Source: Phoronis australis (taxonomy: Eukaryota > Animalia > Phoronida). From it: a DNA stretch of 64,000 nucleotides. A program made the position numbers and the translations under genes. Below, piece by piece: positions 25,201-60,864 of the stretch; positions within the stretch are counted from its first letter, which is position 1, and each line of letters starts with the position of its first letter. A model generated the notes under the pieces. The model did not search any database and was not told where the DNA came from. It saw nothing but the letters and a program-made list of their open reading frames with translations. Where the stretch lies: positions 64,158-128,157 of the forward strand of contig NMRA01000745.1 in NCBI GenBank assembly GCA_002633005.1, written 5' to 3'.

Positions 25201-28200
25201 TCATACATGTAACTTGGTCAAAGCTTTTTCATATGGATGTTCATTCTTAAGTCTAAAAGATAACAGCTGTTGCAGTTCTCTTAATTGTTGTTTCATGCTC
25301 ATTTATGCAACTCACTGTACTTTACTTGATATGAAAATTGGCCCATCATATCGCTTGAAATTACTCGGCGGGCTTTTATGGTCCATAGTGGCAGGATTTC
25401 ACCTTGCTAAAAAGTGTGCACAGCATTCAAGATTGACTAACATTGTTCAAACTTTACCCATTTTATTAAGGCTTGGCTAATATTGTTCTGTTTTGGCTAA
25501 TGTTATTCGAGTTTGGCCAATATTGTTCATTAAGCTTTTTGGTTCTACCTCATTCAACATCCCCTCCTCGAGCTCACATAACTTCTCCAAGCGTCTTAAT
25601 GTTAATGCACTCGAGTTTACTGCATGAGACACACGTACGCTCTAATGGATACGTTAATTTTCGTCACCATTTTGTAAGAATCTTTTTTCTTGTGTTCGCG
25701 AGAGGTAAGCAACTTGAATTATCTTTTTTCACCAGCAAATGAATTTCACACTTGTGCACTAACGATTTCCAAGAAACAAGATTTTCTAACCTTGAAACTG
25801 AATGTTGAAAAAGGGAGCAAGTTTTTCAAGGCTTTTAAAAGCCTGCTTTTCCTAACTGGGTCACCGTTTTTGGTTGGTATAAACTGTGGGGGCAAATAAT
25901 TTTAAACTTGGAGGAAAATATCAAATAAGGTAACGTTTGATCAAATGCGGCTTTTTTGTACATGTGTATATTGGTACCTTAAATTGAGCCTATGATGAAT
26001 TCAGTGAAAAAGCTCGCAAGTTCATCTTAGACACTAACAGTGTGTTTTCTTCTTGAAAATTTTTGTCCAGAGAAATTTGACAACTATTATTTTGTTGTGA
26101 AAACACCTTGGTGTTCTTTTTGCTCTTGATTTCTTCTCCACGCGTTATGGAGAGGCTGAGTTGTCAAGCTTTCTTCTTTCATAAGATGATGATTAAAGCC
26201 GTTGTGAATTATATTGTGATACACGAAACATCAATTTCTTCCCATAAAATTACCATCGGTGTAATAAGGGACAGGGGGATAGTTGTGATCTCTGAGAATG
26301 TAACAGTAACCGAAGGTAACCACAGCACATTGGGTGTTCCTGCATAAAGGGCCACTGTTTACAGGCCACTCTTATTTAAAGCACCTGCTTTATTTATGCA
26401 ATGGGAGATTTCCTTGGTTTGATGGCGAATCAACGACGTGGTCAGTCGACTCTGCTTCGTGTGTAACAGATAATCGGAACTGTAGTGGCCGTTTTTCTTT
26501 TGTATTTGTCAGTGAAAGACAAAGCTGACGTGCTGATGCAGCTAGAGGACCTGACCGCAGTCAAAGATGAGCTGACAGAGCAGGTAACTCAGACTCCAGT
26601 ACTCTTTTGATAATGGAAACATTCACGAGTAGGCAGTGACCAGTGGTTTGCATTGTGAATAAGAGCAATGTGGGTGTTGTTGTCTTTGGGGGCATGTTTT
26701 TGGCCCAAATTGTTGAAGTTTACTCGCCATCATTAAGATGTCGTCAGACATTGTGAGGCCCAGTGTGGAGTTATGGAGCTTGTAGACGGCATGTAGGTGG
26801 GTTGTTTTTGGATGACGTTCAGGGCATTTGAACCAGATGACCAGCAGGCCTCTGTAAGGCATGCTTTTAGCTGACCAATGTCTAATTTAGACACTTACTT
26901 CACTGCTTTGCTCAGTTGCTGTGTGCTAAGTTTTGGCCTTCTGGTCAGTAATGCATCGCAAGCTGTATTACTGTCAAAAAGATCTGTCCTTGAGGTAATG
27001 AGCTGGTTCTTTTAAGTGATTCCTTTCCCAAAGAACCGTAGTTGTTTACTCTGTCAACAGGAATGAGTAAAGACATCAATCATGTTGCAGCGCATCAAAA
27101 CTGTGTTGTGTGTGAGAACAGAACTGTGGTGCATGAGAAGTAGAATACAGCTCACGTGATCAGAATTTATAATGATTTTGTCTTCTGATCTGTCTATACG
27201 TCAAATTTCAACATGTTGACTCTGACGGAAAGAGTGAGTTATGACCTCGTGGGAAAAAAATTGATGAAAACAAATAACCGAATATATAACAACGGTCGAT
27301 CTGTACGTAATAATAACCAATGCCAGTTGAAATGTGAACGACTTCTTTACTTAAAATCTGTTGAGATGCATTGTTCAGGAGAAGCTATGCTCCGTAGACA
27401 AAGACTACTGTAACTGTGTTTTCTGACCGTGGGAGTTTTTGTCTTTGTCTTCTCATTCCTGACGACTTTCTTTGTTGTCCACCAGCTGACCGACATAACA
27501 GGCGAGCTTGAGAGAGAACGGTCTAAAGTACACGCCCTGCAGAAGGAGCTGGACAAGTTTAAGGTTGGTGTTCTCTGGGAAAATGTCTTCTTGTTCGAAA
27601 TCACTCGAGTCACAGGTCTTCATCTTGTGTTGGCTGAGATATTTATTCACCAAACCTCTCAGTCGAAAGTGGGAAACTTAATGTCCAGTAATAGAGATGA
27701 AGAACGGTTCATGGTTTTGTTATGTTAAGAGATTGAGAGCAGAAAGCTTTTAACCAACGAGGGTCCCACCTGGCTATTAAATGTGTGATTGTTCACAATA
27801 TGACCTGCTGCATCCATAGTAAAACCTAGTGAATGGTTTTCATCTCCTTCAAAACCATTCGTTTTGAAAGGTAACTTTGGCGTGTATTATATTTCTGGTA
27901 TCAGAGTTATCTGCTTGTGTTGCCAAATACTGCATTTTCAGATGAAGTCATGGAATTGTCATGTAACATCGAGCATCAAAGGCAATGCCAAGTGACCATT
28001 TCTACTTTAAATATTATTCCTTTTTTCTGCTTCCAAGTTCACTTTCTAATCGTGTAAAACGTTTCTTTGCTGAACTATTTTTGTGCGGATGTCGTCCATT
28101 TCCATGACTTGTTCTTTGGCAGTTCCTGGTGAGCTGACGCGCGGTTGAGCCACATGGTGACTGCATTCAAAACCTCTTTACCTTTGAATCTCTCTTGCAG

Positions 28201-28224
28201 GGTGGAAAACATACCAAGAACTAA
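16300..28224 (+). CDS. GKAP1: G kinase-anchoring protein 1 homologue, ~360 aa
   Basis: Ten coding exons: 16300-16482, 16647-16829, 18572-18649, 21457-21604, 22000-22151, 23632-23733, 24683-24746, 26513-26583, 27486-27563, 28201-28224 (1083 nt, in frame, all GT-AG). Motifs recognisable from vertebrate GKAP1: SRFALLKV, ELRNLAF, QWEEWKKLD, SKLEY, FFNRVEED, VKKRNKQL..LAQGEMKDKADVL, LERERSKVHALQKEL..KGGK. Confidence 0.95.
17154..17461 (+). repeat. MITE family A copy containing a ~150-bp nested insertion
   Basis: Family A 5' half at 17154-~17245 and 3' half at ~17399-17461, separated by a GCGCGCACAG...GGCGCGGCCGTG segment. Confidence 0.65.
22406..22610. repeat. Tandem repeat, ~78-bp unit x ~2.6
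   Basis: TTGTAATGTATTG recurs at ~22406, ~22485 and ~22563 with CACTGACTCCAGT subunits. Confidence 0.75.
24752..24972. repeat. Degenerate ~30-bp minisatellite with a TTGATTGG core x ~8
   Basis: Cores at ~24752, 24782, 24812, 24842, 24869, 24899, 24929 and 24963 (two are variants). Confidence 0.75.
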
Positions 28225-29111
28225 AGGCGTCCGGTCGCTAAAACAATTCAGGGTCTTGACAGTCGTTTTTATTGACATTATCAGCAACTTCGATCACATT
28301 GTTTGCCATGTTAGAGTTGACAAGCCGAAATCAAGAATCTGGTCCCAGGTTTATGAATGGATGTCAGACATTTGATGATCAGTGCCAAAAGTGGGATTAT
28401 CATCATTGGTTTTTATGTTCTGACCTGCATAAATTAGGAATTCTAGTCGAGAGTATGGAGTACACTGTGATTTGCAATAGTCTGTCTGAAAGTAGGCATA
28501 CTTTTATTATAGTAAATTTAGTGCTGGATTTGCTGAATGGCATGCTGTGTTAAACATTTGCAACAAAGGGTAATTCCTGGACGCTCATGTTCATTGTCCT
28601 TTTACCACATCTAATATTTCTGTATACCATACTCCCCCCGGTTACTGCCCACCCCTGAAATTTTCAATTTATCATTTTTAAGCGACCATGACAAGCTTAC
28701 CGCCCGTCCCCTGTTTTTTAGATTCCCAATTTAAATGCCCTGGGTTGTAACCTGACGAGTCCGGTAATCAAAAGTAAAGTCCTTTTTGATTAATGGCATG
28801 AGGTCTGAGCTCTGCTTTTACCGATCACTACTGCCTAAATGTTTATTTTGGCTTTGCATCCAGATTCTAGAGTTTTCACTTAGTGGGGTCTTCAAACTGC
28901 CTTTCTCAACTAACCACCCCACTTCATTTGGGGTAAATAGCTAAATACCTGTCCGTAGTTCGCTTTGCTGAAGTTAAGGAATACCTTTTATTGCCATCTT
29001 CTGATGTGGACTGACCGATGTATTGCCTGTTTATGTTTTGTACTTGAGCACCATGTGTTGTTACTTCAACCAAAAAGTGTACATTAACAATGGTTTCATT
29101 GTCTCATTTGT

Positions 29112-29117
29112 AATAAA
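29112..29117 (+). terminator. Candidate polyadenylation signal of GKAP1
   Basis: AATAAA ~890 bp after the stop codon, followed by a T/GT-rich tract. Confidence 0.5.
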
Positions 29118-32100
29118 CTTTCATCACATTTCTTTGGTGTTTCTCTCAGTGGTTCCGGGAGCATTGGAACATGGCCATTGAGACCCTTGGAGTGAATTGT
29201 GACTTAGTTTAAATTAGTCTTATTGGAACTGATGTTTTAAGTTAAAGCCCATGGAGTAGTAAGTGAACTCTGGGCTTCATAGACGGCATCGAGGAGGTGG
29301 GAAGGAGCGGCAATTTGGTCTTAAGCCACCATCGCAATATTTCCACGGGATAAATATGCTTTGAAATTGTTTCTTCTTTCAAAAGTACTCTTGAAGTGGT
29401 TTGGCGTTGGAAAATTTGCGTCACGTGGTTTCCGAACTTGGAAAGAACTGGCACTATGTTATGGCTTGAATCCATACTCGGCGGTTCGTCACAAAAGTAT
29501 CCAGTTTGGTTTCAACTCTGGAATACGATTTTTCAAATAATATTTGTTGTACTACTGGGGTCGCTCGAAAACTAAAAGTAAACGTTTCTGAGCCACACGT
29601 ACATGGAATTTGTAAGCACACTTTGAAGTGCGCATGTCGCTCCCCGGGGTTAGAGGTTCGGGATTTTTGCTGATTGGTGGAAGGGCATTTCCGGATGATA
29701 TATGTAGGAAATAAATGGGCGCATTTCAATGAAAATTGAAACGGAGTTGTGCGATTTCAATGCGCTGGCAACATTAAATTTCAGCTCAAATTTGGCCAAC
29801 AACCGCCAAATAGCGGCTGCTTCTGGTATGGACAAATCACAAGACCAGGGCAGAGTTCAATAACAGCACCTGGCTAGAAAAGCAAGACTTCGCAAAATTA
29901 CGTGTGCGCGAGATGTTATCTTGTATTTTCAATGAAAGCACTTGATTTTGGCCAGATTTTCGTTCCGCGAGACAGCTGCTCATAAACTCTACCGTGTTCA
30001 TCTGTTAATTTGTTCTGCCTTGTGCTCACGTGGAGTGCAACAATTTCCGCATTCAATGATGGCTTCATGTTAGTATACATGTCTCAAATGAAATGGTATC
30101 CCGTGAATGTTTACCTTCTGAAATTAAGCTTATCGTAAGAAGTCAAGTTTGGGTGATTTTTACCCAAGGGAATGTCGGGCGAGAAAAATTAGCAAGAGTG
30201 CAAGCGTTTGGTTTCGGTCCTCTGTCAGTTGTAGCGAATGGTTTGATTCTTTGAATTATGAGTTGTGATGCCGGGTTGAAAACTGTTTTTAAACAGTTTG
30301 GTTTTGTGATGGTTTAAAGTTTGAGTTGCCAACATTTTTTTTGCCAACTCTGACAATTGCAGATACCATAGTGTGGTCTCCTTGAGATCATAAACCTCGC
30401 ACATTGAAACATACAATTTGCGGTACATTCGTGGGCATTGCCGTTGTTAGCATGTTTCTTTGGTAAAATGATTCGAACTTATTTTTTCACGACGAATTCA
30501 ACTTTTAAATTGTCCGTGTAAGAATGGGGTGAAACTAGTTAAATTTGTTGCTGATTCGTATCTTTGTTTAACATACGGTTTAATAGATTTATACTGGTTT
30601 GGAACGTGTCAGTGCAAACGAATCTGCCAACCATTTCGAAGTGCACAATAAACAGAACTTGGACACATTATTATGAAATGCTAGTCGTAGTCAAAATGTC
30701 AGCAAGGAAAGGATGACGTTTTTGACCGACCATGAGCTTGTGGCTTGAAAACGTCAGCCTCGACTCATAGGCCTATTTAAGATTCCTTCCTGTCAGGAAC
30801 AAAAGATAAAAACGAACATGAAAAGAATCTTACATTGACACTCTCACTTAGGCAACTCGACCAGTTTGCTATCTTTGAAATTCTCTACTTCTTCAGTGAG
30901 ACCACCCAGCTGTAGGCGACCGCAGGCTGCTGTTATCGTCCTTGCTTGGCTAACTTTCCTATCTACAGCTTTACGATTCAGCTAGATGTGCTACAAAATG
31001 GGCCCCTACCAAGGGCCATAAGCCTGCAGACAGCGGTTGGACATTGCCAAAAGCCAGGTGTCATAGTACATGTACAGGTCTCGGTATGAAAGAAATAAAA
31101 ACATGACGTCAAGCTGTTTTAGAGTTAACGAGAACTTAATATGCCCTTCCAAAAATGTTTAAACCACCCTGTGCGACATCCGAGATCCGCAGTTTGACTA
31201 TTTACTAAGTGGTATTATCAAGATAACAGTCAAACTAGCGCGACCTCATCCATAGCGGACCATCCAGGTGTTTCGTATTTTTACCTTACAACGCGGAAGA
31301 TTGTCAAGAAAATGGAGAAAAAGTGTGAGTTAGATACTTACCATACTAACCACTCGTGCTGACTGGACTGGCATGCTGAATTAATTCGCCATCGTCCACC
31401 GTCAACGAAATTTTAGGGTTAGACATAACCTCCCATAAGCTCTTTCTGATAAGAAATTTTACAACAGGTACGCCTGGTGGATAACTAAAGTGCCGATAGT
31501 TTACCTGTGTTCGAATTCTTATAAACTATGTCTAATCCAACTTACGTGTGTAACCGTTTTGGTTAACGTGTCCCAGTCTGTCCCTAACTTTTTTTACTCG
31601 TGCAAAACCTAGAGAGCTACCGACGTATGACATGTGATGGTATTGTAAATTAAACTGAATTGGTCACAAATTCGCTCTTCCTGTCGGCAGGACGCTTTTC
31701 GAACGCTCCGGGCTGCTGCGGAGAAAAACATGTTTAGTCTCAAAAACTCCAGTAGGTGGGACACACCGATGCTATTGGTAATGGAATAAATTAAGGTGCA
31801 TATGTCATCTCATTCAATATTTGAGTAGCTTGTTTAAATCCTGCATTCCTATACTGGCACACCGTTATGACTTCAGATGAAGCCAAATAAAAATTTAGGT
31901 TACCTCTATACTCCACCTAGGGAATTTTATAACAGTAAGTGACAACTCAGTCTTTGGCAAGGTTTAATTAACGCTATTTCAATTATCGATAGCGTACATT
32001 AATAAATTCCGTAATTAGTTTATGTACGTAGCTTATATATTAATAATGAATTACTATTGTTAATCAATTCACGTCGTTATGATTAAAGCAGCTTTTTGTC

Positions 32101-35100
32101 AACAATTTTTAATTTGGGCCATTGATCGTCATGAAATTTGTCGTGTCTTTTTCTTTACTCAGTTAAGAAGTCACTCTGGGCTAATGAAGAGTTGAAAACT
32201 CGTTATTTCTTCAGACCAAACTAACAGAGTATCAGGTCACAGTATGACTCGTTGTTTTGTGAGCTTGGTATAGACAACAAATTGTCGCTTCTTTACAGGC
32301 ACCGAGACCACACTTAATTGAATTGATTAAAAACAATCAGAGATTTATCTCATAACCTTGGGGTCTATGTCGAAACTTGTTTCATGACAGAAAGCACGAT
32401 TTTATTGCTACTTTAATTTACGCGCGTAGTCGATTAATTTGCGACATTAGCAATTAATTCACACTTTTTAGTAATTAATGTACGCGTGTTGATAATTTGT
32501 TACAAGCTTTTAAAATAGTTAATTTAGGGAAATGACATTGCTCGACAAAACTTCGATCGGGGCATTCTAAGCGGCTTCACCTTTCCTTACTTTGTACTTT
32601 TTGTATAAAATCAAAAAGATGAGCCTCCAACTCAAACCCATGACCCACAACGTTCAGCCACTACGCCTGGATTACCTTCACAACATGCATGTGATATAAG
32701 TGGACAGTGAGCATGTGGCCTTTTATTCATTTCAAACACAACTGTTTTCTTATCTAAAGATTGGCAGTTCTTTAGGGTATCATTTGTCGTGGCTAATGTC
32801 AAGGTTGTTTGAAAGTGTAAGGACACTGACACGTGTTTTTCAGCGGCCGGCTCGGGAAGAATCTCGTAAACAGTTACATTAAAACTATTTTTTATTAATT
32901 AAAAAACGAAAGTAGCCAAAATTTATTTCAATTCTCGGGTAACCGTTGATGAATATTTGTTGTAACTCTGAACCGTGGTTGATAACAATTGACTTGCGAG
33001 TTGTGATGCATGACAAAACAGCACGGTAACGTTTATCAGTGGACTAGATTGATATCTAAGGGCCGAGTTCAATTACTGTCTCCTTGCCAGAAAAACGTTG
33101 CCAAACCCATGCGGTCTCATTGAAAATACACTGCAATATCTTGAGGAATCTCACGAGATATTGTCCATGCCTGGAAATTACTATGCGCGTAAACGTGTAA
33201 TAAGAAAAAAGGGCTAAAAACCTTCTCACAAGCCATTCTGTTCAGTACAGGTAAAACACCGCAGGTTGTAACTTGAATTTCTTTGATTTACGATTTTCAA
33301 AAACATTTAATTCCACTGTATGTTGCACAGGCCCCCTTCGTACAACCGTTATCGGAAGTTATCCCAAGCCGGCATACCTTAAAATCCCGGACTGGTTCAG
33401 AAAGGGAACGAACCACCTGACGGAAGTATCAAAAGAGTACAACGCAATTGTAAACGATGGAAATCACTTGGGTGAGTCTTCTAAGACCTTCTCAAGAATC
33501 AGTTCTGACGATTGTTCTTTCAAATGGCATTGCTTGTCATTTTAATCTTTCTTTTTAACGGTATGGTCTGACATCATTCCGTATTTTTTCTCAATCCCAT
33601 ACCGTAAAATTGCACACCTGGTAAGTGTAAATTCAACAATGCACTCAGCTTCTAAATTCAATGTAATTCATGGGCGGTGCACCACTTTTTTCAGTGCTAC
33701 GCCGCATATGGTCTAGGCCGTGCACCACAGGAGGGCTGAAGTGGCTTTAGCCCCCCACTTTTTTCAGTGCTGCGCCGCCCGTGTAATTATTGTACTACAT
33801 ATACCGTATTTTTTCCCATCACAAAACACTTTGAGTAAAAAATTGCCAGTTTCACGCCCTTTAGGGTTTGTATGTATTTGAGTGGTACCCTCTCGTTTAC
33901 ACGTATTCACGAGTACAGTTCGTACACCATCTTGAAAGGTGTCTAGTACTATAAAGACACCATTTTTCTCACATAACCTGGAATGTGCCAGGACACGACT
34001 GGTTAATAACACCGATTACGTAATTTAGTTGATATTATATGTGGGCGAATCACAATGTCACAAAGTAGTGGAAAGTAGAACAACACACGCGCTCAATTTC
34101 ATCGTTTGCAAAACACTGTACCAACAGCCAAAACACAAGCCAACGTCAATCAAACAATGCCGAAAATCTGTGAAGGTGACAAGTTTATGATAGGTGTCGC
34201 AAGCGAACGTACTCACAGTCGATAGGACATGCAAACAACTCATTCTTAAACAGAGCCTCCTTCGGCGGCGAATTCACTATCAATGTTCATTGAAACGGAG
34301 ACGTACCTCAACTCAAGAAATGCTTTAAACCTGTCCAGCTGTGCTATCTCAAAGTCAGTCCAACGCTCACTCATGAGGAATCCCTGCTGATTGTGTTATT
34401 TGTAAATAATTACAAAGACTATTTATTATAGTCTTACTTGCACATTTGCAACGAAAGCTAAAAGTAATTTGTAGTGTTAAGTAAAAAATAAAACTATTAA
34501 CAAAAACTAATCGAATTACTTTGCATTGCGTAAGCATGTTTTTACAAAAGTTGCGTAATGTGGTTGAAAGTTTTAGACACCTCAGGTTTTCCTGCAAAAA
34601 GATCGTTTTACGATTCATGTGCGAAAACAAGTCCTACACTGGTCTCAGGTTTATGACATGGGTTAATCCTCTCGGAAATTTCGTCAAAATCCCTCGGCAA
34701 GTTTTTGACGAACGTTCCAAGAGGTTTTGCCCATTTTATAAATTGAGACGAGTTAAGGATTCACCATCCACGTTCGTTTCCCATGCACATGTAAGTGAAC
34801 TGGAAAGTACTAACATTCTCTGACGACATTGGTATTAATCCTGGTAATTTGCAATGTCAGTCAAGTTTTCACAGCGTTCTCTCTTGGGCCACTGGTATCT
34901 TGCCCAAACATTTATGTGAACTGTGCCAAGTTCTAAACTAGATTATCACAGCTTTAGGCATGATGGCTATCACTCAATTTAAATACATTGCATGTGTTTA
35001 AATTAAAATCACAATGCCGAATACACCATTGAGTAAATATGGAACTTAAGAAATGTCGCAACGTTTAGAGGCCTGGAATTCAATAAACAGCTCGAAAAAC

Positions 35101-35883
35101 ACAAAGACATCAGAAGTAGATTTAGATGGTGTCAATTCAGTTTACTCAAACCTAAAAATGGTTTAAGTAACTAAAACTACCAGGGCAAGGTTGGTTAGTG
35201 TCAAAAATACTATTGGGTGTGCGATATGACCGGATGGAGCAAAATAGAGAAACAATTGCCGTATACAAACTTTTTGTAAAATCTACTTTTCTTTCACAGA
35301 GGATCTAAAAAGAGCGATCCAACAATGTCTCACTGAACAGGCTGAGTTAGGTATCGACGTAGTGACAGACGGAGAATTGGGGCGCGAGAACTACGTGTTC
35401 GACTTCTGGTAAGTTCATCCCCTCACATGTCTCCAGTGAACTCACCCAGTGATGTTCCAAGAACATGGCTGAGACGACGATGCTACAATATTGATACCTG
35501 TAGATACATGTACAATGTCACTAACAGTAGTTATACATATGATAAGGGTTGTGAGAGGAACACTAAATTATGTTATAGAATTAATGCCTAGGATGCTCGC
35601 ATTTACAGTCCTGCGCCTACATGAGCCTTTCGACATAGAACAAGACTAACTGGAATGCTAATTTCAATTTCACGTGGCAGAGGTTGAGCTGTACACATGT
35701 GGGTAGTTGTTTACATTTATCGTAAACTATTTTGCCCGGGGTACGCCGCGAGCTAAGTTGCAGAGTAAAACAAGAGGACGATTGCGAATACTGTAATTTA
35801 TTAGGACGTAAAAAGGTAAAACTAACTAATACAGTCCTGCGCTTTCGTGGGCCTTTCGACATAGAACGAGACTAACTGGAATT

Positions 35884-36709
35884 TTGATTTCAATTTCACG
35901 TGGCCGAGGTTGAGCTGTGCACATGTGGGCAGTTGTTTACATTCCCTTGTTCCGCTGTTGTTTTCTTGCTTTAAAAAACAAAGTCACATTGAACTCTTTG
36001 GAAGGAACTGTTATTTCATTGTATTTATTTTTCTGTCGCTATTGTCGCGTACGTCTTGGCTAATTAGAAACGCACACAAAACTAATTACATCAATACGAC
36101 CTCTCAAACTTCGAACTAAAATAAATAAGATTACCCTGGACATTTTCACTGTAATTGCTTAACGAAAATTGGGCAAGGGCTTGCCTCTGTCAGTTGTCTA
36201 GCTTGAATGGCAGCTGGCCGGCACAAAGGATGGCGTTACACAATGCCCAACGCTCCCTAACATTCACCACTCCGACCCTACTCCGTTACGCTACANGTTG
36301 ATTTCAATTTCACGTGGCCGAGGTTGAGCTGTGCACATGTGGGTAGTTGTTTACATTCCCTTGTTCCGCTGTTGTTTTCTTGCTTTACAAAACAAAGTCA
36401 CATTGAACTCTTTGGAAGGAACTGTTATTTCATTGTATTTATTTTTCTGTCGCTATTGTCGCGTACGTCTTGGCTAATTAGAAACGCACACAAAACTAAT
36501 TACATCAATACGACCTCTCAAACTTCGAACTAAAATAAATAAGATTACCCTGGACATTTTCACTGTAATTGCTTAACGAAAATTGGGCAAGGGCTTGCCT
36601 CTGTCAGTTGTCTAGCTTGAATGGCAGCTGGCCGGCACAAAGGATGGCGTTACACAATGCCCAACGCTCCCTAACATTCACCACTCCGACCCTACTCCGT
36701 TACGCTACA
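35884..36709. repeat. Near-identical 414-bp tandem duplication joined at a single N
   Basis: 35884-36295 versus 36298-36709, two substitutions seen, N at 36296. An older partial copy lies at ~35606-35716. Confidence 0.9.
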
Positions 36710-37510
36710 TGTATGCCAACTTGACTGCGCTAGCTACGCCAACGCTGCTGTCGCTCTCCATTTCCTCCCAACTAAATAGTCCTCGAGGTACGCTGCTACT
36801 TAAGATATATCTTGTCTTTCTTGTCTCGTTTTTGTCACCTGGACGATACTGTGTGTCAGTGGCGACGATGTGAGTGAATACCTACACATATTGTCGCTCC
36901 CAAAATGAGTTAAAGTGGTTCTTGGTTCTTAGGTGGGATGACTCAATTGGAGGTCCAATGAATTATAAGAGAGTCAAGAACGTGAGCAGGTAGAACTTAG
37001 GAAAGATTTGGTATTTTTTATAATACCTTCGCCACATGCCAGGATTGTTATTTTTCATTTTATTTTAATTTGATTTTCCAAAGAGAAACATTGGAAATAT
37101 GACAAGAAACATGTTTCACTCCCTTCAATGCCAATAGCCTTCAACTAGACCTCTTGGACGACAATACATGTTTGTATCGTGTGCGTTAATGTGTGCCGTG
37201 AGCGCATAAAAAGCACACATATTGGTTCCTTTTTTCTTTCTTCTCTACCCCCTGTTTCTTTCTTTTTTCTTCTTCTTTCCTTTTCTTTCGTTTTTCTTGT
37301 TTCTCTCTTTTGTCGCTCCTGATAGGATCCTTCATCACAATAATTCTCTGTTACTTACTTTTGATTTGATTCCATGTTGAAGACCGCTGGGTAACGTCAA
37401 CACATTTATAATCCCGACCACTATCAGCAAATACTTAGAGCCAATTCGTCGTCCTCCGAGTCAGCTTCTAATCGTCTCAGATGTATAGTACAAGGTATGA
37501 CACTCGTCAC

Positions 37511-38089
37511 GACTAGGAATTCCACGGGTGTCACTTCAGCCGTCCCTATCAAACACATAAAAATGCGTTAACTTAAAAAAATGCGAAAGACAGGGATCTA
37601 ACAAATCAAGAGCAATTGTTCTTTCTTCTGATAACATTTACGGTGTCCTGCTCCAGCGAGTTCGCTACAAACTCGCGGTCAAGGTACAAAAATCTTCCCA
37701 AAAAGCCGCTGGGTACTGTCAAGGTCTCAAACGGAAATTACCGATTTGTCACGGAAAGTCACAGCATCAACAAAGATACTATAAAATCTTTGACATCAAT
37801 AACTCCACACTTATTCGTAACCTTCCGTGATAAACTGGCATTTGCCGTCCATCCGTAAATCACCGGATAATTTCGTACTGGCACATTGACAGTACGTTGC
37901 GGCCTTTGGGGAAGAATTTTGTGCTTTGACCGAGAATTTGATGCGAATTCGCTGGAGCAGGACATTGTAAATGCTATCAGAAGAAGGAACAATTGCTTAT
38001 GGTTTGCTGAAACCCTGTTTCGTGAGAATTTATTGAGTTCTGTGTTTGATATAGACGACTGAAGGGAAGCACCCGTGGAATTCCTAGTC
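37511..38089. mobile_element. Foldback MITE-like element with ~240-bp imperfect inverted arms
   Basis: GACTAGGAATTCCACGGGTG (37511) is the reverse complement of CACCCGTGGAATTCCTAGTC (ending 38089). Internal blocks such as GCAATTGTTC.TTCTTCTGATA.CATTTAC and TGTCCTGCTCCAGCGA.TTCGC are also mirrored. No clear TSD. Confidence 0.8.
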
Positions 38090-41000
38090 CCAAATGTGTA
38101 CTGGGGACGATCAAAAGCTGAAGACGCATGCACTGGTGGTAAATGTTCACCAGTGATGCGGCAGCGCTCCAACGCTATACTCCTAACAACTACTTGTTGC
38201 AAAATTTGGACGAGTTCATTTCCTGAACTGGCAGGGCTGGATTTTTTACGGCAGGCGTGCGTTCATTTGTGCTGGAACCTACGCTAGGACCTAGATAAAA
38301 TCTTGCCGAAATCACGTGTTCTCATTTAAAATACACGACAATCTCTCACCTACTGCCGCGAAATCTAGCATTACTGGACAGGAGGGGGGTCTTTCTTTGG
38401 CAGAAACTGCTGTCACGCAGTCACTTAGTGGTTTTTCATGTCCTGTCGACGGCCGGGATACCTGGGATTGAGCACAAAATAAGTTTTTACTACACATTTT
38501 TCCAAATTTACCTTTCCAGCAACATCACCTTCCTAGGGCACACGATCCTCGCATAGATGTCGGTAGATAGGCGTATCTATTTTTCACTTTGTTTTTCTTT
38601 CTAATAACAATTACATAATGGTGAGCATTTATTGGCAACCGGCTGATGACCGCCTAAGGTACGATATCCGTGCAACGTGTATTGTTATATCCAACAAATA
38701 CGCAACAAAGGAAAACAATGGTAGCGTCCCATAGGCGATAACCATGCGACGTGTATTACTCCCGTCGCATGGATCTTGCAAGTTAAGCAATAGCTTGCAA
38801 AGTCCATACGACATAATTTTGCATTGGTCATAGCAACAGTCATGAAACTAAGTTTCAGAAAGTTGGAGGAAACTGATATTAGAAAATGTAATAATGTGGT
38901 CTTAAGTATGTTTCGTTTTGTAGCCGTAATCTAACGAATTTCGACTTTGAAAAGTTAACTTTCAAAGTCTATCGTAATGGTGCAGTACAGAACCACGTAC
39001 CGACAGTGCGTGGGCCCCTTGCCCCGAGATCACAGAACTCTTGGTGTGTTAACCAATGGAGACTAGCGCAATCGATGAGCGATCGACCAGTAAAGTTCAC
39101 CATCCCCGGCCCAATGACGATTGCAAACACTACTGCAGGTATATGAGTTAGTTTCTTCATAACCCATATTTAGCAGAAACTCGATGCTTCCAAAATTTAA
39201 TGTACATGTATTCTCAAAGCTAAGCCAATTCACGGGATACTGTATCCTTGATGCGGCATATTCAGATTTTTCTAAGTAGGTTGGTAATATATCTCAACCG
39301 TGGTTACTAAAGTTGCATTTAAAGAGGTTTTGTGGATGAGCGCGTTTAGTTTGGTGGTCTGGTAGGAAAGTGGCGTTTACCTGTTGAAGCGGCGTGGTGG
39401 TGAAACAAGTTTATCATGATTTTTCTACACACGTGAGATGATACATGACCGTAGTCTTAGTCGCAATCAGATCCGGTTAAAGTAGTACATTCGGTTCCTG
39501 TCGGCTCCCCGACTCATTTCCAAACCAACACCATACTGCTTTAAAAGAAAACGCGCCCGTCAATCTCATTTTAGCACAATTCTGGGTTATCAAAAAAGTA
39601 ACTTCTAAAACACCCTACTAGTAGGTAGCTTTTTACCTTTATCACAACTAGCCTCTCCGGGTACTTAAAGGGATGCTGAACCCTTTGTTTATGTGTAAGC
39701 ATCGACCTCGTACTAAAATTATTGAAACTAGGCACTACTCAGTAGATCTTGAAGATTTTATTCAAATCCTTACAAAATCGATATTGGCTAAATCGGCACA
39801 AGAGACTAACGCTTTTGGGCGACTTAAGGTTACTGGACGACTGTAGGGAAATTCTGCTTCGTCTCAATCACCTGATTTTTTGTTGTTTAGAATCAAACAG
39901 TTAAAATACATCAGTGTGTCAACCAACCTTGTTTTTGGATGTTATGTTTACCAACTCTATTGCTGTGTCGGTCACCAGTCGATGGAATTTCGCTATCAGC
40001 AATGTGTGTAGCTTAGGTTTGTTTACTGACATCAATAAATGAACACCAGTGGCCTATGTCACACTCAAAGGTGTGACACTTTTCAATACCATTACTGTCA
40101 TCAGCCTCATATAACGTGAACAAATCGATAATCTAATTTATTAGTTTAATAACCTTTTTGATTCCCACTAGTGACACAATGGAATGCTTCATCGAGTTAT
40201 CGTGTTTTTAGTTCCCCAAAATACCTCTAAGTATGCTATGTGTGTGCAGATTTACTTTCCCAAATTGTCCACAGCATGGCGCTGCATTAATATTTCATGA
40301 TGGTAATGGAATGTTGTCAAGCAAATTGTTATCAGTGTTGAATGTTTCTCCAAGGGGTACTTGGGTTTCACATGATGTCTTTGTTTCACTATTTATTTTC
40401 AAGTTCATGATTATCTACGTTGGCCGAAGGGAATTGTAAAATTTTGCCAATGGGCCCTGATGATCAAACTCAAAAAGAAACATTCTATAGCCCTGACATT
40501 TACTGGGGTTTGTTTTATGAAGAGTCACGTTAAGTCACAATTTTGGTCTTACGCTCCACGTATCTATTCCTGAAATATATTTCGTCCTCACTTGAGCAAA
40601 AGTGCAAGCTCTCTGGGAGTATACACAAAAAATTCATTTCTTGGTTACTGTGATAATTTATATAAAGTAAATTATTTCTTGACAGTGATGCACTCATAAT
40701 TACTTGAGTAAAGACCTGTCGCAAGCTCCGCCCCCTAACGAAATGTCGGCACAGGAGCAATAAGTTTCACCCGGCAACGTTTTTGTCGGGTAAAATGGCG
40801 GCTTGGAAACGAAGGTGTGTCGAGAATGCAGCGTTCTGATTGGTCAATTAAGCTGTCACTCAAAATCCTGGCGATAGGTCAAATGAAGTAGATGCGTAAG
40901 ACCAAATTCCCGTCTTTTAAGTCTTAAACCACTTTCATGAAACAGGACCAGCCTCTAAACTAAATCACTAATTTGGTTTTCGTTGTTCCAAAATAGGGTA

Positions 41001-42666
41001 TCCACACTACTGTTGATCAATTTGTGTGCATTTTATTACTCGTAACTGGAACAATGCTGCTGTATAAGTAAATGAGAAGTTATGTTTTATATTTTTTTTA
41101 GACGACTTTCATAACAACCCAAAAGAACTGAGTGAATCTTTGATAAAGTGCATCAATCGCGAGGTTCGTGCTCTATCAGATGCTGGATGCAAACACATTC
41201 AAGTCGACGAGCCTTTGCTGGTGCGTATTCCGGAAGTGGCAATGGATTATGGTATCGACCATCCTAGGAGGTGCTTTTAAGGAGTGGACAGCGATGTGAC
41301 GAAGACAATCCATTTATGTTGCGGTTATCCTACACATCTGGTAACTGTTTTGTTAATACATTGTACTTTCATGTAAGCAATAAAGGTGCTTGTGTGGGTC
41401 GAATGGAATGCTTTTAACAGAAGATCAAGCAGATTACAAGAGTAAGCTTACTTAGTGATCCAGACAGGCTCGGCTATGTTATGTGCTTGAGGAACCTGGC
41501 TGCCGTGTTCCTCTGGGTTAAATCACCTGCGGAAGCTAACAGATTAGAAACTCGGCCTGTTTCACTGCACCTTTCTCTTTTTGACAAATGTATAGACGAA
41601 CCGCTGAAGTCAGGAAGTCTTGTTTGTCCGGAACCACGATGGTATACCGAGGACAATAACTGGCGAGTTTTCGAACCGATTACAATTATTTCCTCGTAAA
41701 AAAATTATCAGGATTACTTTGGCCCGAAACTAATGCGATAAAAATAGGTCAAAACAAATGCGTTAAGGTTCGATTTTCTGATACACCGGTTAACTCATTT
41801 GGTTTTAGAGCTGTAAAATCTCACTGTTTCTAGAAATATACTTGATTTCAATCCCTTAACGTATTAAATCTGGTGTCGCATATTTCTTTTCTCACGTTAG
41901 TGATCTGTGAGTTTAGAAAGAACTGGTACTTTGCTATTGCTTGAAGTCAGATTCCATAAGTTAGCTTGGCCAGGGAGATGTACATGTACATGTACTTGGC
42001 TAGCATTGCTTCAAGCCATAACGAACTATCAGTTCTACTGTAGTGCAAGGACTCGAGTAAGAAAGCTGTTGACAACGTTTCATAACACATTTCTATTTTT
42101 GCATGTGCAACGTAGGATGCTGAGAACTATCTCAAGGCAGAGCAAAAGGTGTATTTTGACCTGGCAGAAAAGCTTGACAACGCTGGTTTCGACGAAAGTA
42201 TGTGATATTTAATTATTGTCTATTCACATTACGAACAACAATAGCTTGGTTTGTAACTCACACATATCTGCTTCAAACCTGACATTCAACAATAAACTTT
42301 ACGAATTAGAAGCCTTTTATTTTGTTTTATTTTGTTTAACTTAAAATGATATTCTTTCAGTTTCCATCGAAGATGCTTGGCGATACAACGACCTCTCATT
42401 ACTCGACAAGTTCAAGAAATCTACCATTGTTTTCGGGGTTCTTTGCATCGCGAGAAGTCAAGTGGAAACCGTCGACGAAATTGAGAAAAGAATCAAAGAC
42501 GCTCTTAGTCATATTACCAGAGAAAGGCTCGTGATAGCACCCGACTGCGGCTTGGGGTTTCTTCCTAAAGACATCCTTCTCAGTAAACTGAAAAACATGG
42601 TGGAGGCGGCTACGAAATGTTGAACACGCGTTATTCTCGAGGAAATAAATATGGTCAGTCTCCATA

Positions 42667-43644
42667 GGATACATGTAGCTCTAAAAACCCTTCGCCCCCC
42701 TCGACCCACAACCCAAAAAGCCCTCGACCCAGTCAATGCAAGCTCGACTGGATCTGAATATAGAACCAGCGCTGACTTGCAGGACCAGGGAGTTGGGCCG
42801 TGATCTCGGCTGGGTTTTTCCTGTTTTTTTGAAATTCAGGAAGTCTATATTCGGCAAGTTTGAAAGCCAAAAACAGAAACAAACAACGCGACCAAATCAA
42901 ATGAAAGACCCGCTACCAACGTTACAAATGTTGTTCTCGGCAGAGCGTAATCGTCTCGTCTGATCTTGAGTGAATAGCAGATTCAATTTGGTTGTGGAGA
43001 GAGCGAGGAACCTACAGAACTGTAATTTCATCAATAAATGCAGTTTGATGAAACAAACTCTTGACTAAACGTATATTCTAAACGAGTATACAACAGAAAG
43101 CAAATAATTAAAATGTAAAATTATGTACATTCGCGTTACCGTACTCTTTACCTAAGTGTAGTAGAACTGGACCATGGGTAGCCGCTGGTGTAACTATTTC
43201 CGTAACAACAATACCGCGCTCTCAGTGCCTTATTTCAGATCACGTTCTCACGCCACTTAAATCACCAGACTAGAGCAAGAGCAGACTCGCGTGTAGGCTT
43301 GTACGTCCTACGGGATAGTCACTCAGCGGCATACATGTGTTGTGAAGCGTGACTTCCGGTTGTGATGACTGGTACACTCAGATAAAGCCTCTCTAAGCCG
43401 CTGGCCAAGCAGCAATTTCCTCTTTATCGCATGGTTTAGACGCTTGGTCGTCGCACGTGCAACCTGGGTTAAAGTCCCACCGGAGACACCGAAATTGTCT
43501 ACACATGTAGTTCGATGCAATATGTAGGAATTGCAAAAACACACCTGTTGCCTCGAGTCGAGGGGCTGTGCGTCGAGGGGGTCGTTGGTCGAGAAGTGTG
43601 AGCAGTCAATGAGTTTGTGGATCGAAGGGTTTTTGGAACTATCC
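42667..43644. mobile_element. Putative non-autonomous TIR element just after the MetE-like stop codon
   Basis: Left TAGCTCTAAAAACCCTTCG (42676) versus right reverse complement TAGTTCCAAAAACCCTTCG (43641), with mirrored subterminal CCCTCGAC repeats. No clear TSD. Confidence 0.55.
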
Positions 43645-46286: not shown

Positions 46287-49200
46287 TCACGTATGCTTAG
46301 TCTTGACAAAGATAGCCATTGCATCCGCTGTGCCCAGCTCAGGTCCGTCTACAAAACATAAAGGGATATCCATTATGCAGAACATTGGAAAGGAATTGAT
46401 TATAATTTGCATTCTGTGCGAACTCGTTAGTGATATACAGCTATTCCCTAATAATCAAACACGTACATTCATCACTAGACTAATGGGAAAATGCCATAAT
46501 CTAGAAACGCTCTACAAGAGTGAGAATCCTCTTGTCGAAACGAAAATGGCTATTAGGCATGTTTTAGAGGTCAAATTCACTTGAAAAAGGGCGTCGACGG
46601 ATTGATCTCTCACATCACTGGGTCATGACACATTAAATCCGTCCTTCAGTTACGCAGATATCTTCCGAAAACACTCTTCTCCACAGAAGAAGTGAACGCA
46701 TCCCTTGTCGAGATTGAAGTGGCCATAGTGTTGCATCTATGAAATCTGCTCGAAAATCAACTAGTACTGGCGTATTGTTGTCAAATACCGTGTGTAAAGT
46801 ACTGTATGTGCTTTAGCTGTACACAAATCAACCAGAAAATCTTCTGCAAAAATGCCGAAACACTAAAGCCCTCCCCCTTGCCCCTTAGCGATGCCCTACG
46901 TCCTTGTGCCAAATTTCATCAAAATACAAATAGATTTCGTGGTAGCGAGGAGACGGCAACTGGACAAACGGCCAATTGGCCATGGAGGGGTGCTGTATTA
47001 GCCAATCAAGTGATGCCAGCACACATCTGTTACATTCCTCTGTCCCAGGTGTTGGATTGGAATCTGTACAAAGTTTTTCACATATCCACAATCGCTCATC
47101 CTCTCAGCAAGGAAAACCCTTGTCGAGACCAAAATGGTCTCCAAGAGGTGCTGCAGTGGTCTTATCTGCCAATATAAACGATTGTTGCCGAAGCATTGTT
47201 GTCACATACATTAGTGTAGAGATTTAGGTAAATCTATCAATTTCTTCTCTAGATATTACCCGGAAACGCTAGTCTTCCCTAAACTACAGCTGAAAAAACC
47301 TTGTCGGGACCGCAACGGTGTGGCTGTATTTGTCGAATACGCCAGAAAACCGATTTGGGCCAGCGCGTTCTCGTCACATACCTCTGTGTCAAGTTTTTTT
47401 GGCGTCCATCGATTCTATCAGAGATGTGTTACTCAGAGAGTAATACATTTCTAGTTCTAGTGATGACATTCGGATTCGCTATTCCTCCAAAAAATACTGA
47501 AAAGACCCACTTACCTGCCCATGAGGTCGAGACAGATTGAAAAGTTTGATGGCGCGAAAACGTACAATTCCTCGGAAGAAACCATGTTTCCTTATTTACA
47601 TGTCTGGTTTCATTTAACTTGTTTTCGTTTTATTTTACTAACATAATTAGGAAACGGCGATAGCTGTTTAAGGGTATACATGTACTGTCACTCTTGTAGG
47701 CCAATCTCGCACCCTGCCTAAAATAGAGGGGCTCGAATTTCTCGGTATAGGTGTATGTGGTCTTTTCGCTGTAAAATGAACACGAGGACTATAAAAACGC
47801 GGTACTGGGTCCAGACCAATGGATCATGCAATCGCGCCGAATTCTTGTGGACTTTGTCTCGTTTTTTTCGGACTTTTTCGTTCTCTGGGGCGGACCTTTT
47901 TCCCCACTTCGTCGAATGGGGGACTCGTTCGAGCTCCTTTAGTCTCCTCTGGGTGCGCGCATGTAGGTAGAATTATTTTGGTTCATGTATGTTATATCAG
48001 TGTGAATTTTACCTATTGCAGAGCTCCACTTCATCTTGGTCGGAGTCTTACTGTACCAAAACTGTGGGTAGTTGGAAACTCCGTTCTCCCAATCACAAAC
48101 ACCTTCACCGTCTATTACAGCGACCCATCCTGTGTCTTTGTCACAGCTCTCGTACGCGGTACTGATGAAAAATCGGCGGTGGGTAGTATATTCCCTAATC
48201 ACATCAAAACACATAATTATTTATTTATTATTTATTTATTTATTTATTTATTATGATATTTAAAATGAGGGTGTTCTCTTCATTAATAGCACTGCTTTCC
48301 AAGAGGGCCCTCAACAACAAATAGCAGTATAATAATACAATGAAGTAATAAAACAACGATTTAACATACGTACATGTAACAAAGGTACAATTAAAACAGG
48401 TTGAGAATTAGGACAATAACTAAATGACAAAGATTGGCGAAAATTTAACTATGAGAGATCAAATTAAAAAAAAGAGATGACTCTTAACAGTGAGACTATT
48501 TACGACCACGAAAAAATGACATGATTAAGATAAGTAGGGTATAAAAGATTAGGTAAATTACAGCCACAGTGTGCTCTTTAAAATTAATATCCTCACTCAG
48601 TAGGTAGTGTAAAGGTCAGCTTATTTGTATAGATAAAGATTTTCAGCGTAAACCTGGTCTCTTGGCGAACTGGTCTTGTCTATCTTTTCACAGCGTACAG
48701 CATGTTTTGGTTCTGTGGAATTGTGATTTGTTTAGGGATGCATTTGACATTTTTCGAGTATTGCGACACANAACCTTGTCGGGACCGCAACGGTGTGGCT
48801 GTACTTATCGAATACGTCAGGAAACCGATTGGTGCCAGCGCGTTCTCGTCACATACCTCTGTGTCAATTTTTTTTTTTTGGCGTCCATCGATTCTATCAG
48901 AGATGTGTTACTCAGAGAGTAATACATTTCTAGCTCTAACGATGACATTCGGAAACGCTATTCCTCAAAAAAATACTGAAAAGCCCCACTTACATGTACC
49001 TGCCCATGAGGTCGAGACAGATTGAAAAGTTTGATGGCGCGAAAACGTACAATTCCTCGGAAGACAATCATGTTTCCTTATTTACATGTCTGGTTTCATT
49101 TAACTTGTTTTCGTTTTATTTTACTAACATAATTAGGAAACGGCGATAGCTGTTTAAAGATATACTGTCACTCTTGTAGGCTATTCGCGCACCCTGCCTA

Positions 49201-59679: not shown

Positions 59680-59952
59680 AGGCGCCGTGAACATGCAGAG
59701 GAAACAGAACGAGTGGATAATTCTTTGGTAAGTTGGAATTCGTCAAAGAAATCACTGTCAACGCAATTTCGGCCACAGACACGGAGATGTTTCACGGCCT
59801 CATACATGTACTTGCTCTTAACAGCGTATTTTTCATTCTTCATACCACGAGCAACTTCCTCTCGAGGAAGTCGAAAAACGATATACCCGTTTTTTTCGCA
59901 GCTTCATATATGTATTTCGGACAAACGGGAACGATGCACCGCAATATAGCGG
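59680..59952 (-). pseudogene. Degraded THAP-domain relic of a DNA transposon, interrupted by the LINE
   Basis: Minus-strand frames give RCIVPVCPKY..KTGISFF and KHLRVCGRNCVDSDF..EL..RRL, resembling the THAP C-x4-C...FP...W...C..HF pattern with substitutions and frameshifts. Confidence 0.4.
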
Positions 59953-60864
59953 TTTGATAAAATTGCTGTACCAACTGTGTGCTACGGCGAGGAAATCTGG
60001 GGACTCAAAGAATACGAATGGCTTGAAAATGTTTATGTTAAATTCTGTAAAATTGCTCTTGGAGTTGGAAACTCTTGCTCAAACGCAGCTGTATTGGATG
60101 AATGTGGAATTTATGCAAAGTATTATGTCACGTGTGTAAAATATTGGCTAAAGTTATTGAAAATGCCACCTACTAGATACGCTAAAGCGGCTTATGACAT
60201 GTTAGTTGATTTAGATAGGCATGGAAGAAATAGTTGGGTATCTTCTGTTAGACAATTGCTATCAAAATACGGTTTTTATGAAATTTGGTTGAATCAAGGT
60301 GTCTCGTGACAAGTCTCGTTTTTAAGTTTCTTCGCGCAAAGAGTTAATGACTGTTATGAACAAGGTTGGCGATCAGAAATTGAGCTCAATGCAAAACTTA
60401 AATTCTACTGTAACTTTAAGACTCTGTACTGTTTTGAACCATATCTTAAGTTACCGCTACACAATAGCCTTATTCCAGCGTTTACTCGTTTACTTTGCTC
60501 CAACCACAGACTACAAGGGGAAGTGGGTAGACACGAGACAGTGGATTATTACAATAGATTATGTATGGCTTGCAATGATGGTCTTGTAGAGGATGAGTAC
60601 CATTTCGTGTTGGTTTGCAAGGGATATTGTGAACTTAGGTCACGTTTTATGAAGGAAGTTCAATGGAGGCATCCAACTCAAGAATCCTGTATACTCCTGC
60701 TCGCTAATCCAGATATATCTGATATTAAATATGTGTATTTTTCCCTTAAAAGACGAGAACAACTCTTAAATGGGTTGACTGCTTGTGCAAATGTGCCTGT
60801 TTAATTGTTTTGTTTATTGTACTTTGGTCCAGAGGCCTTCAATACAAATAAACGTATTATTATG
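59953..60864 (+). mobile_element. 5'-truncated non-LTR retrotransposon 3' end (RTE-X-like)
   Basis: Post-RT sequence FDKIAVPTVCYGEEIWG..KFCKIALGV..VKYWLKLL..YEIWLNQGV and a C-terminal Zn finger RLCMACN..EDEYHFVLVCKGY, with stop/frameshift damage. AATAAA plus a (TAT)n tail. The 9-bp TSD ATATAGCGG is at 59944-59952 and 60865-60873. Confidence 0.85.

Follow-up and report, generated by a model that had tools for sequence, protein, structure and literature searches.

Structure and Transcription of the Gene

The 64-kb stretch of Phoronis australis DNA analyzed here (hereafter the window) carries on its + strand a gene for a protein that corresponds to the C-terminal barrel of MetE, the methionine synthase that works without cobalamin. 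The gene consists of seven exons and six GT..AG introns (305, 1828, 3515, 1963, 775, and 163 nt, in this order), which join in frame to 354 codons followed by TGA (Table 1). A preceding sequence-only reading of this DNA had described six exons and a tentative micro-exon encoding approximately 350 amino acids; this exon structure was recovered with all the motifs quoted, while an in-frame TAA in exon 5 (see below) had been missing from that account. When five exons were scanned singly, three gave matches to the Meth_synt_2 family (PF01717), one of which (exon 7) was above the Pfam cut-off. Exon 2 has no in-frame ATG ahead of the conserved start of the protein, and the micro-exon that could provide one (exon 1) stays tentative, because the RNA mapping covered the region of exons 4–7, with exons 1–3 outside it.

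For this mapping, three RNA runs (X5, X6, and X7) and one DNA run (X1), all with the same species label, were aligned to positions 38850–42800, reading approximately 18–19% of each RNA run. The junction support that had been suggested as a check was found in two of the three runs: introns 4, 5, and 6 were spanned by 7, 10, and 7 reads in X5 and by 6, 4, and 7 reads in X6, respectively. In all spliced reads the first mate lay on the minus strand, which is what most stranded libraries would yield for a transcript of the + strand. Run X7 showed zero reads on the exons within the same region and fraction of the run. Because the reads are spliced and the protein is sister to that of Lingula in the phylogenetic tree (see below), bacterial contamination is ruled out, as had been argued before, and the gene is a true animal gene that is spliced and transcribed.

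Alignment with other gene models suggests that the positions of introns 4, 5, and 6 are common to other animals, as gaps or an insert in these models match intron 4 (Saccoglossus model), intron 5 (an amphioxus isoform), and intron 6 (one further protein). Fragments from the coral clade, judging by the alignment, continue without interruption across the first three of these exon borders.

The TAA at codon 220 precedes all four Zn ligands and would truncate the protein before them. At this position the RNA reads show G, and thus GAA (Glu), in 9/9 cases for X5 and 7/7 for X6 (16/16 in total), and the sole X1 DNA contig over the codon also has GAA. Since all RNA reads and the DNA contig agree, the TAA makes the window copy either a null haplotype or an assembly error. 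The window allele would be null, with the other copies in the species intact at codon 220, and a species-wide pseudogene is ruled out at this codon, as the stop is missing from all mapped reads. Of ten listed exonic differences between the window and the reads, seven alter the protein (87 further difference rows lie outside these ten).

Some non-coding features of the gene were observed as well (Table 1). The 300-nt duplicate in intron 3 is probably an assembly gap artefact, and as its copies flank an N, the assembly is considered to be of draft quality. The same intron contains an inverted repeat, and intron 4 a high-copy repeat.

Table 1. Exons of the methyltransferase gene and other features of the window (positions within the window).
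Feature	Position	Strand	Description
Exon 1	33010..33025	+	Tentative micro-exon with start ATG and phase-1 GT donor; frame fits exon 2
Exon 2	33331..33471	+	TTVIGSYP motif containing S15, which corresponds to S433 of E. coli MetE; family-conserved W27-F28
Exon 3	35300..35408	+	TDGE motif with E78 (E484 equivalent); invariant R81 and Y84
Exon 4	38924..39138	+	Conserved R106, PGPMTI motif; T158 at the MetE folate-site W561 position; RNA depth and junction to exon 5
Exon 5	41102..41340	+	QVDEP with D196 (D599 equivalent); HLCCGYP with Zn ligands H231 and C233; both junctions in RNA
Premature TAA, codon 220	41278..41280	+	In exon 5; present only in the window sequence
Exon 6	42116..42197	+	Conserved Y245, K247, A248, and Y253; both junctions in RNA
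Exon 7	42361..42623	+	ISIE and APDCG motifs supplying the Zn ligands E271 and C330, respectively; stop codon; Pfam PF01717, E 3.4e-14
Duplicate in intron 3	35884-36183 and 36298-36597		Two 300-nt copies, 99% identical, either side of the N at 36296
Inverted repeat in intron 3	37590-37740 / 37868-38018		151-nt arms, 79% complementary; possibly a small non-autonomous transposon
Repeat in intron 4	40700-40900		High copy number; DNA contig depth >10,000; each of the three RNA runs has reads on both strands
Upstream gene	~16300-29200	+	Multi-exon
Exon with start of von Willebrand factor A domain	10212-10514	-	Pfam E 4.9e-9; similar-looking exon near 7061-7546
Open-frame blocks	~47200-48260 and 48600-49750		Near-identical, located around an N (48771); either duplicated in tandem or an artefact of the assembly
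Open frames	59950-60804	+	Without Pfam match

Fold, Catalytic Residues, and Family Assignment

The protein encoded in the window consists of one C-terminal barrel of the MetE type, which is 28% identical to E. coli MetE. Within the window, the C-terminal half of E. coli MetE matches exons 7 and 4, and the N-terminal half has no match (best E 0.95); a hidden N-terminal barrel was not found, in agreement with the earlier statement that this barrel is missing. The longest of the 120 matches listed in a search for proteins of 152–2000 amino acids measures 394 amino acids, and the orthologues are 340–409 amino acids long, tandem or partial gene models aside. Identity of the joined protein is 59% to the Lingula orthologue, 54–55% to those of Saccoglossus, amphioxus, and Owenia, and approximately 50% to bacterial members.

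All seven residues of the Zn and homocysteine sites, which have been used to judge core methionine synthases in the accessible part of an earlier study (PMC7857596), align between the window protein and E. coli MetE. The His/Cys/Glu/Cys Zn site recognized before is present as H231, C233, E271, and C330 (H641, C643, E665, and C726 in E. coli), and the equivalents of the homocysteine-site residues are S15 (S433), E78 (E484), and D196 (D599). Over 107 family members, H231, C330, E78, and D196 are conserved in 100%, and C233 and E271 in 99%. The position of MetE W561 is occupied by T or S in 107/107 aligned members; the folate-stacking Trp is gone, and the claim that folate-site features are missing is thereby upheld. 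The Zn site, the scores of exon 7 and the orthologues above the Pfam cut-off, and the fold place the protein in PF01717 and the Zn-thiolate alkyltransferase superfamily; PF02574 (S-methyl_trans, the family of BHMT) is not assigned.

The predicted structure of the Owenia orthologue is of high confidence (predicted local distance difference test, pLDDT, 96.0; predicted TM-score, pTM, 0.94). The best fold match of this model is MesD (3RPD; Z 41.8, root-mean-square deviation 2.0, 329 residues aligned, 28% identity), and MetE C-terminal barrels are the next matches (Z 33.7). The family does not coincide with any of the NCBIfam methionine-synthase models: none of the 13 members tested reaches any cut-off, and a MesD-like control does. 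For canonical MetE (TIGR01371), members score approximately 105–129 bits versus a cut-off of 930, in agreement with the earlier view that this is not a canonical MetE. For PRK09121 (MesD), the 13 members score 146–199 bits versus 392 (control L212, 551.9), and for PRK00957 98–127 bits versus 258. Nine members were far below the cut-offs of PRK00957, PRK04326, PRK01207, PRK08575, and PRK06052, by which MesB and MesC are judged indirectly. Separately, members or close relatives (P0333, P0408, and P0389) occur as fusions with an S-adenosylmethionine (SAM)-dependent methyltransferase, with a TenA/THI-4 domain, and with a glycosyltransferase-2 domain that matched weakly.

Distribution and Phylogeny

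The family occurs in at least seven animal phyla. Named animal matches include scleractinian corals, one jellyfish, hemichordates, three amphioxus species, Lingula, two nemerteans, and Owenia, and the echinoderm matches listed represent every class except holothurians; among the best 120 matches listed per search there are no names of vertebrates, molluscs, arthropods, or sponges. Protist matches comprise six dinoflagellate species and Ancoracysta, and bacterial matches (approximately 45–52% identity) come from marine alpha-, gamma-, and deltaproteobacteria, Nitrospirota, and Chloroflexi. The gene was found in 24 of 301 genomes in a sample of one alphaproteobacterial order and in 2 of 401 Pseudomonadota genomes (with the centre genome counted in each), and plasmids yielded distant relatives only (8 records, 33–36% identity). 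The description of the gene as patchily retained holds, as does the view that its methyl donor is probably not a folate. One alphaproteobacterial genome (G023; loci L210, L214, L216, L218, and L220-L239) has 25 PF01717 matches, a large expansion of MetE-like paralogues.

In a careful tree of 37 rows, the whole family forms one clade (100/100), within which all eukaryote copies (animals, dinoflagellate 'MetE 2', and Ancoracysta) constitute a single clade (99/99) nested among marine bacteria. Animals from corals to amphioxus group together in a single clade (98/99), in which the window protein has that of Lingula as its sister (97/87). The clade including the dinoflagellate 'MetE 2' has a support of 97 in a quick tree of 92 rows, and in a quick tree of 106 rows, cnidarians, echinoids, asteroids, crinoids, and Ambulacraria each come out as a group, a pattern as would be expected for vertical descent since the cnidarian-bilaterian ancestor. 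The position of the root shifts between the trees: it lies inside the eukaryotes with weak support (106 rows), between eukaryotes and bacteria (92 rows), or inside the bacteria (37 rows). An alphaproteobacterial sister group has a support of 88/92 (not starred).

These topologies fit one early entry into eukaryotes, or eukaryote-to-eukaryote spread, better than a transfer specific to animals. The latter finds no support, because all sampled eukaryote copies form one clade, and a constrained tree that joins animals and their nearest bacteria without the protists is disfavored as well (p-AU 0.033, for a group named post hoc). Of the proposal that the gene is of bacterial type and anciently acquired, a very old event is thus the most that can be kept, and an acquisition by animals themselves falls.

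Bacterial Gene Neighborhoods

Of 183 loci fetched, 179 were kept (L051 was not recognized by the open reading frame script and three duplicates were removed). The neighbor counts use the 112 loci with a length of 9 kb or more, which represent 47 lineages at 75% identity, and exclude the 67 shorter ones. They were called by BLAST thresholds against references labeled from NCBIfam and Pfam; the 'Tpa' reference was labeled from its context, as it scores 486.9 bits versus a cut-off of 488 and lies beside xsc and tauA.

A gene for the breakdown of beta-alanine, taurine, or aminoethylphosphonate is present in 49/112 loci and 18/47 lineages. These include the omega-aminotransferase AptA (19 loci, 11 lineages), a CoA-acylating (methyl)malonate-semialdehyde dehydrogenase (MMSDH; 28 loci, 8 lineages), taurine genes (9 loci, 7 lineages), and aminoethylphosphonate genes (8 loci, 4 lineages). 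Also adjoining are a flavoprotein resembling dimethylglycine dehydrogenase (DMGDH; 15 loci, 7 lineages), alanine dehydrogenase (13 loci, 8 lineages), a PotD-type binding protein (33 loci, 16 lineages), and the homocysteine-making MetZ (8 loci, 3 lineages). The PDB entries nearest to two of the AptA neighbors are beta-alanine/omega-amino-acid:pyruvate transaminases, and a flavoprotein neighbor is nearest to dimethylglycine dehydrogenase (E 2.5e-132). Co-directional runs of aptA, an ATP-binding cassette transporter, the family gene, and the MMSDH gene occur, for instance, in L039, L042, and L049. In closed chromosomes, MMSDH is single-copy in 13/14 and lies within 8 kb of the family gene in 10/14, versus 0.07 expected. 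The fusion of a SAM-dependent methyltransferase to one family member fits homocysteine recycling.

Other recurrent neighbors were noted. A separate SAM methyltransferase gene is close to the family gene in six loci. A small, apparently secreted protein without family and with conserved cysteines is encoded next to it in 12 listed loci of alpha- and gammaproteobacteria (L013:6260-6634, L030:2418-2807, L027:12031-12417, and others); its identification as the cupin BauB was rejected, as the sequence does not fit and Pfam gave nothing, and the neighbor counts exclude this protein. Several Rhodospirillales-type lineages (L003, L006, L009, L017, L073, L112, most of L118-L124, L145, and L183) have hopanoid genes (squalene-hopene cyclase, hpnE, MlaC-type) next to the family gene, which possibly merely reflects inherited gene order. 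Subunits of dimethyl sulfoxide-reductase-type molybdoenzymes lie next to it in L014, L035, L068, and L161, possibly as sulfite dehydrogenase of the taurine pathway; these were left outside the taurine counts.

Proposed Function

Beta-alanine, taurine, and aminoethylphosphonate all have the form H2N-CH2-CH2-acid, and their N-trimethyl derivatives the form Me3N-CH2-CH2-acid. Taurine betaine and trimethyl-aminoethylphosphonate occur in marine organisms. Beta-alanine betaine has been found in marine plankton and a cultured dinoflagellate (PMC9321204 and PMC11965087). Judging by the neighboring genes, the first candidate donors are beta-alanine betaine and the sulfonates and phosphonates analogous to it. 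We predict that the intact enzyme is a Zn-dependent, B12- and folate-independent beta-betaine:homocysteine methyltransferase with beta-alanine betaine as lead donor, an assignment to which we give slightly less than an even chance. The donors suggested by the sequence-only reading (dimethylsulfoniopropionate (DMSP), betaine, and S-methylmethionine) were close to this, although the bacterial neighborhoods favor beta-alanine betaine and the sulfonate and phosphonate analogues.

In the proposed mechanism, Zn would activate the thiolate of homocysteine, as in MetE and BHMT, which would then attack a methyl group of Me3N-CH2-CH2-COO or of its sulfonate, phosphonate, or sulfonium analogue. The family-invariant aromatic residues W27, F28, Y84, Y236, and Y253 would cradle the trimethylammonium group, and the invariant R106 would grip the acid end of the donor, yielding methionine and N,N-dimethyl-beta-alanine as products. 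In bacteria, the adjoining DMGDH-like flavoprotein would strip the remaining methyls, the omega-aminotransferase would produce malonate semialdehyde (the pyruvate being recycled by alanine dehydrogenase), and acetyl-CoA would then result from the CoA-acylating dehydrogenase; taurine betaine and trimethyl-aminoethylphosphonate would enter the parallel Xsc and PhnW/PhnY/PhnA routes, genes of which also adjoin the family gene. Such an arrangement, in which a homocysteine methyltransferase has a DMGDH-type enzyme and a beta-alanine pathway as neighbors, would mirror, by analogy, the BHMT-DMGDH route for glycine betaine. In animals, the enzyme would act as a second BHMT-like salvage route for dietary osmolytes or those of the animal itself.

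Weighing of the Prediction and Its Alternatives

Several observations count against this assignment. The donor comes solely from the gene neighbors and the activity is a prediction, and the roles of R106 and the aromatic cage are read from sequence position. None of the three breakdown pathways is found in 29/47 lineages (63/112 loci). AptA is encoded in 5/14 closed chromosomes and adjoins the family gene in 2, with 9/14 lacking it; many carriers are therefore without the predicted transaminase. The 10 chromosomes with linked MMSDH are not independent, because they are mostly from related Arenicellales-type gammaproteobacteria. Other homocysteine methyltransferases (PF02574) are present in 18/18 carrier genomes tested, and none of these therefore relies on the family enzyme for methionine. 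The remaining adverse points concern genes for other pathways near the family gene, the S433-equivalent residue, and the state of the window protein, and are taken up with the explanations to which they lend themselves.

The lineages without specific neighbors would suit a different methylated osmolyte or amine as donor (glycine betaine, choline derivatives, proline betaine, or homarine), with the beta-alanine and taurine genes merely marking an island of amine catabolism. Choline dehydrogenase (5 loci), choline-sulfatase-like, glycerophosphodiesterase, and betaine-aldehyde-dehydrogenase-like genes are indeed found near the gene. Set against this are the occurrence of the omega-aminotransferase in 11 separate lineages with differing gene orders, and the fact that carriers already possess enzymes of PF02574, the family that includes the glycine-betaine enzyme BHMT. 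We consider such a donor quite improbable.

DMSP is the sulfur twin of beta-alanine betaine, and its demethylation may for that reason be a second activity of the same enzyme. As the main activity, DMSP (or other sulfonium):homocysteine methyltransfer, giving methionine and methylmercaptopropionate, appears unlikely. MMSDH also acts on DMSP cleavage products, and the carriers include dinoflagellates and corals, which are DMSP-rich. A DmdC-like acyl-CoA dehydrogenase gene lies near the family gene in 8 loci, with 6IJC as best PDB match (E 2e-145), an entry identified as DmdC in the accessible text of PMC6850173. These loci represent only 1/47 lineages, however, and other acyl-CoA dehydrogenases match nearly equally well (E 3.5e-135). 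No dmdA, dmdB, or dmdD was identified among the scanned neighbors, and a substrate containing nitrogen is implied by the MocR regulators and by the genes for aminotransferases, alanine dehydrogenase, and DMGDH-like proteins.

The genes of corrinoid pathways that adjoin the family gene in 2 loci, an MttB-family gene (L167) and a URO-D fusion with a B12-binding domain (L125), together with the shared fold and the shared Zn and homocysteine residues, would suit a core methionine synthase like MesA/B/C or MesD, dependent on a methyl-corrinoid protein or on some partner (e.g., MesX). The members score approximately half the curated cut-offs for PRK09121, PRK04326, and PRK00957, however, and one carrier genome encodes a MesD-like protein that does pass PRK09121 and sits outside the family in the trees. 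MesX (PF08908) was over the cut-off in 0/5 and 0/16 carrier genomes (one shared) and in 0/81 genomes class-wide, in searches in which no positive control matched either. We know of no free methyl-corrinoid partner in animals. An enzyme of this kind seems less likely than one that uses DMSP.

The residue equivalent to S433 is Ala in 154/165 scored bacterial locus proteins and in 46/107 aligned proteins, which could signal a different thiol acceptor in bacteria. The enzyme might then alkylate another thiol (e.g., cysteamine, 3-mercaptopropionate, or coenzyme M), or move a non-methyl group in the manner of epoxyalkane:CoM transferase, within a metabolism of the taurine or beta-alanine type. Besides this loss of the carboxylate-binding Ser in most bacterial members, the neighbors process C2-C3 amino acids and sulfonates, and a cluster automatically named 2-hydroxypropyl-CoM lyase appeared at rank 22 of an Atlas feature search, a lead only. 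On the other hand, both acids that bind the amino group (E78 and D196) are invariant, MetZ adjoins the gene in 3 lineages, the nearest solved structure is a methionine synthase with bound selenomethionine, and the named animal members mostly retain Ser (22/25). We regard another thiol as improbable, standing between the DMSP and core synthase explanations.

Finally, the window protein departs from the family at the near-invariant sites G80, N94, H164, and W274, and its branch is long (0.59 versus 0.22 for Lingula); constraint may be relaxed in the Phoronis lineage. Along with the premature stop, the protein-altering differences, and the lack of exon reads in one of three RNA runs, this would be compatible with a non-functional MetE relic that lacks its N-terminal half and is decaying in animals. 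Such a relic is very improbable, given the 99–100% conservation of the catalytic residues over bacterial, protist, and animal proteins and a clade that is the family's own and not a truncation of eukaryotic MetE; with the stop missing from all mapped reads, decay applies at most to one allele or lineage.

Other Features of the Window

The gene upstream of the methyltransferase gene has motifs resembling GKAP1, the label that the sequence-only reading had used for it; neither Pfam nor an Atlas search of an upstream exon confirmed it. The open frames near the end of the window resemble the C-terminal part of a long interspersed nuclear element (LINE)-type element, for which Pfam gave nothing.

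Comparison With Known Systems

The closest relatives with a name are the dinoflagellate proteins deposited in GenBank as 'B12-independent methionine synthase 2' (Karenia, Karlodinium, Scrippsiella, and Gymnodinium), which are top matches, consist of a single C-terminal barrel, and belong to the same family. Dinoflagellate metE genes without the N-terminal half have been judged non-functional, in an account whose accessible text mentions neither animal members nor gene-neighborhood evidence (PMC11197592).

MesD (PRK09121, PDB 3RPD) is the nearest solved fold and shares the single barrel, the Zn and homocysteine residues, and independence of folate and B12; the window family differs in its score below the cut-off, its separate clade, its other neighbors, and its presence in eukaryotes, and MesX was not seen alongside, in a search without a matching positive control. 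MesA, MesB, and MesC likewise have a single barrel with a Zn-homocysteine site and a non-folate methyl donor, but are described in the accessible part of PMC7857596 from methanogens and Wood-Ljungdahl anaerobes with methyls from corrinoid proteins, whereas the window family is found in marine bacteria, protists, and animals. Canonical MetE (TIGR01371) has the C-terminal barrel in common with the family, which is without its N-terminal barrel and W561. With BHMT and dimethylglycine dehydrogenase, the likeness would lie in the proposed attack of a Zn-thiolate on an onium methyl, the first methyl passing to homocysteine and a DMGDH-type flavoprotein stripping the rest. This is a functional analogy only, as BHMT belongs to PF02574 and the window protein to PF01717, and the betaine predicted as donor is that of a beta-amino acid rather than glycine betaine.

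The MetE-fusion of Phaeocystis and other protists also represents one C-terminal MetE domain in a eukaryote, but according to the accessible text of PMC10861871 has extra domains, whereas members of the window family are approximately 350 amino acids long and stand-alone in nearly all cases seen; the words 'metazoa', 'animal', 'coral', and 'invertebrate' never occur in the main text of that paper. Core-MetE homologues have been reported from cosmopolitan marine bacteria, with a function in aerobes that was considered questionable (PMC12478193, accessible part).

Implications

This is an ancient, real, and uncharacterized enzyme family, whose presence in animals is semi-known through automated annotation. 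The earlier reading expected any novelty in function rather than presence; many marine invertebrates carry automatic annotations, and dinoflagellate members are already in print (PMC11197592, accessible text). We found no literature characterizing an animal member or a gene for beta-alanine betaine demethylation, in a search with supplements and subscription journals outside its scope. New here are the grouping of the eukaryote copies in a single clade and the specific donor prediction, and because animal presence was already visible in automated annotations, the value lies in this functional prediction and the ancient single eukaryotic origin.

In its widest form, which we hold more tentatively than the enzymatic assignment, the proposal is that of a fifth core methionine synthase family, the first kept across animals, with a stand-alone enzyme that needs neither B12 nor folate. 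It would have entered eukaryotes once from bacteria (possibly alphaproteobacteria) and been kept in marine invertebrates and dinoflagellates, where the short metE would be active. The osmolytes serving as methyl sources would be beta-alanine betaine, taurine betaine, and trimethyl-aminoethylphosphonate, with DMSP as a possible fourth, and in bacteria the enzyme would form the entry step of their breakdown.

If true, this would provide a function for an uncharacterized family across marine bacteria, dinoflagellates, and at least seven animal phyla, and would overturn the view of the dinoflagellate short metE genes as dead. It would also supply a candidate first step for the marine turnover of beta-alanine betaine and related osmolytes, and add a route with the MetE fold to animal methionine metabolism, beside MetH and BHMT.

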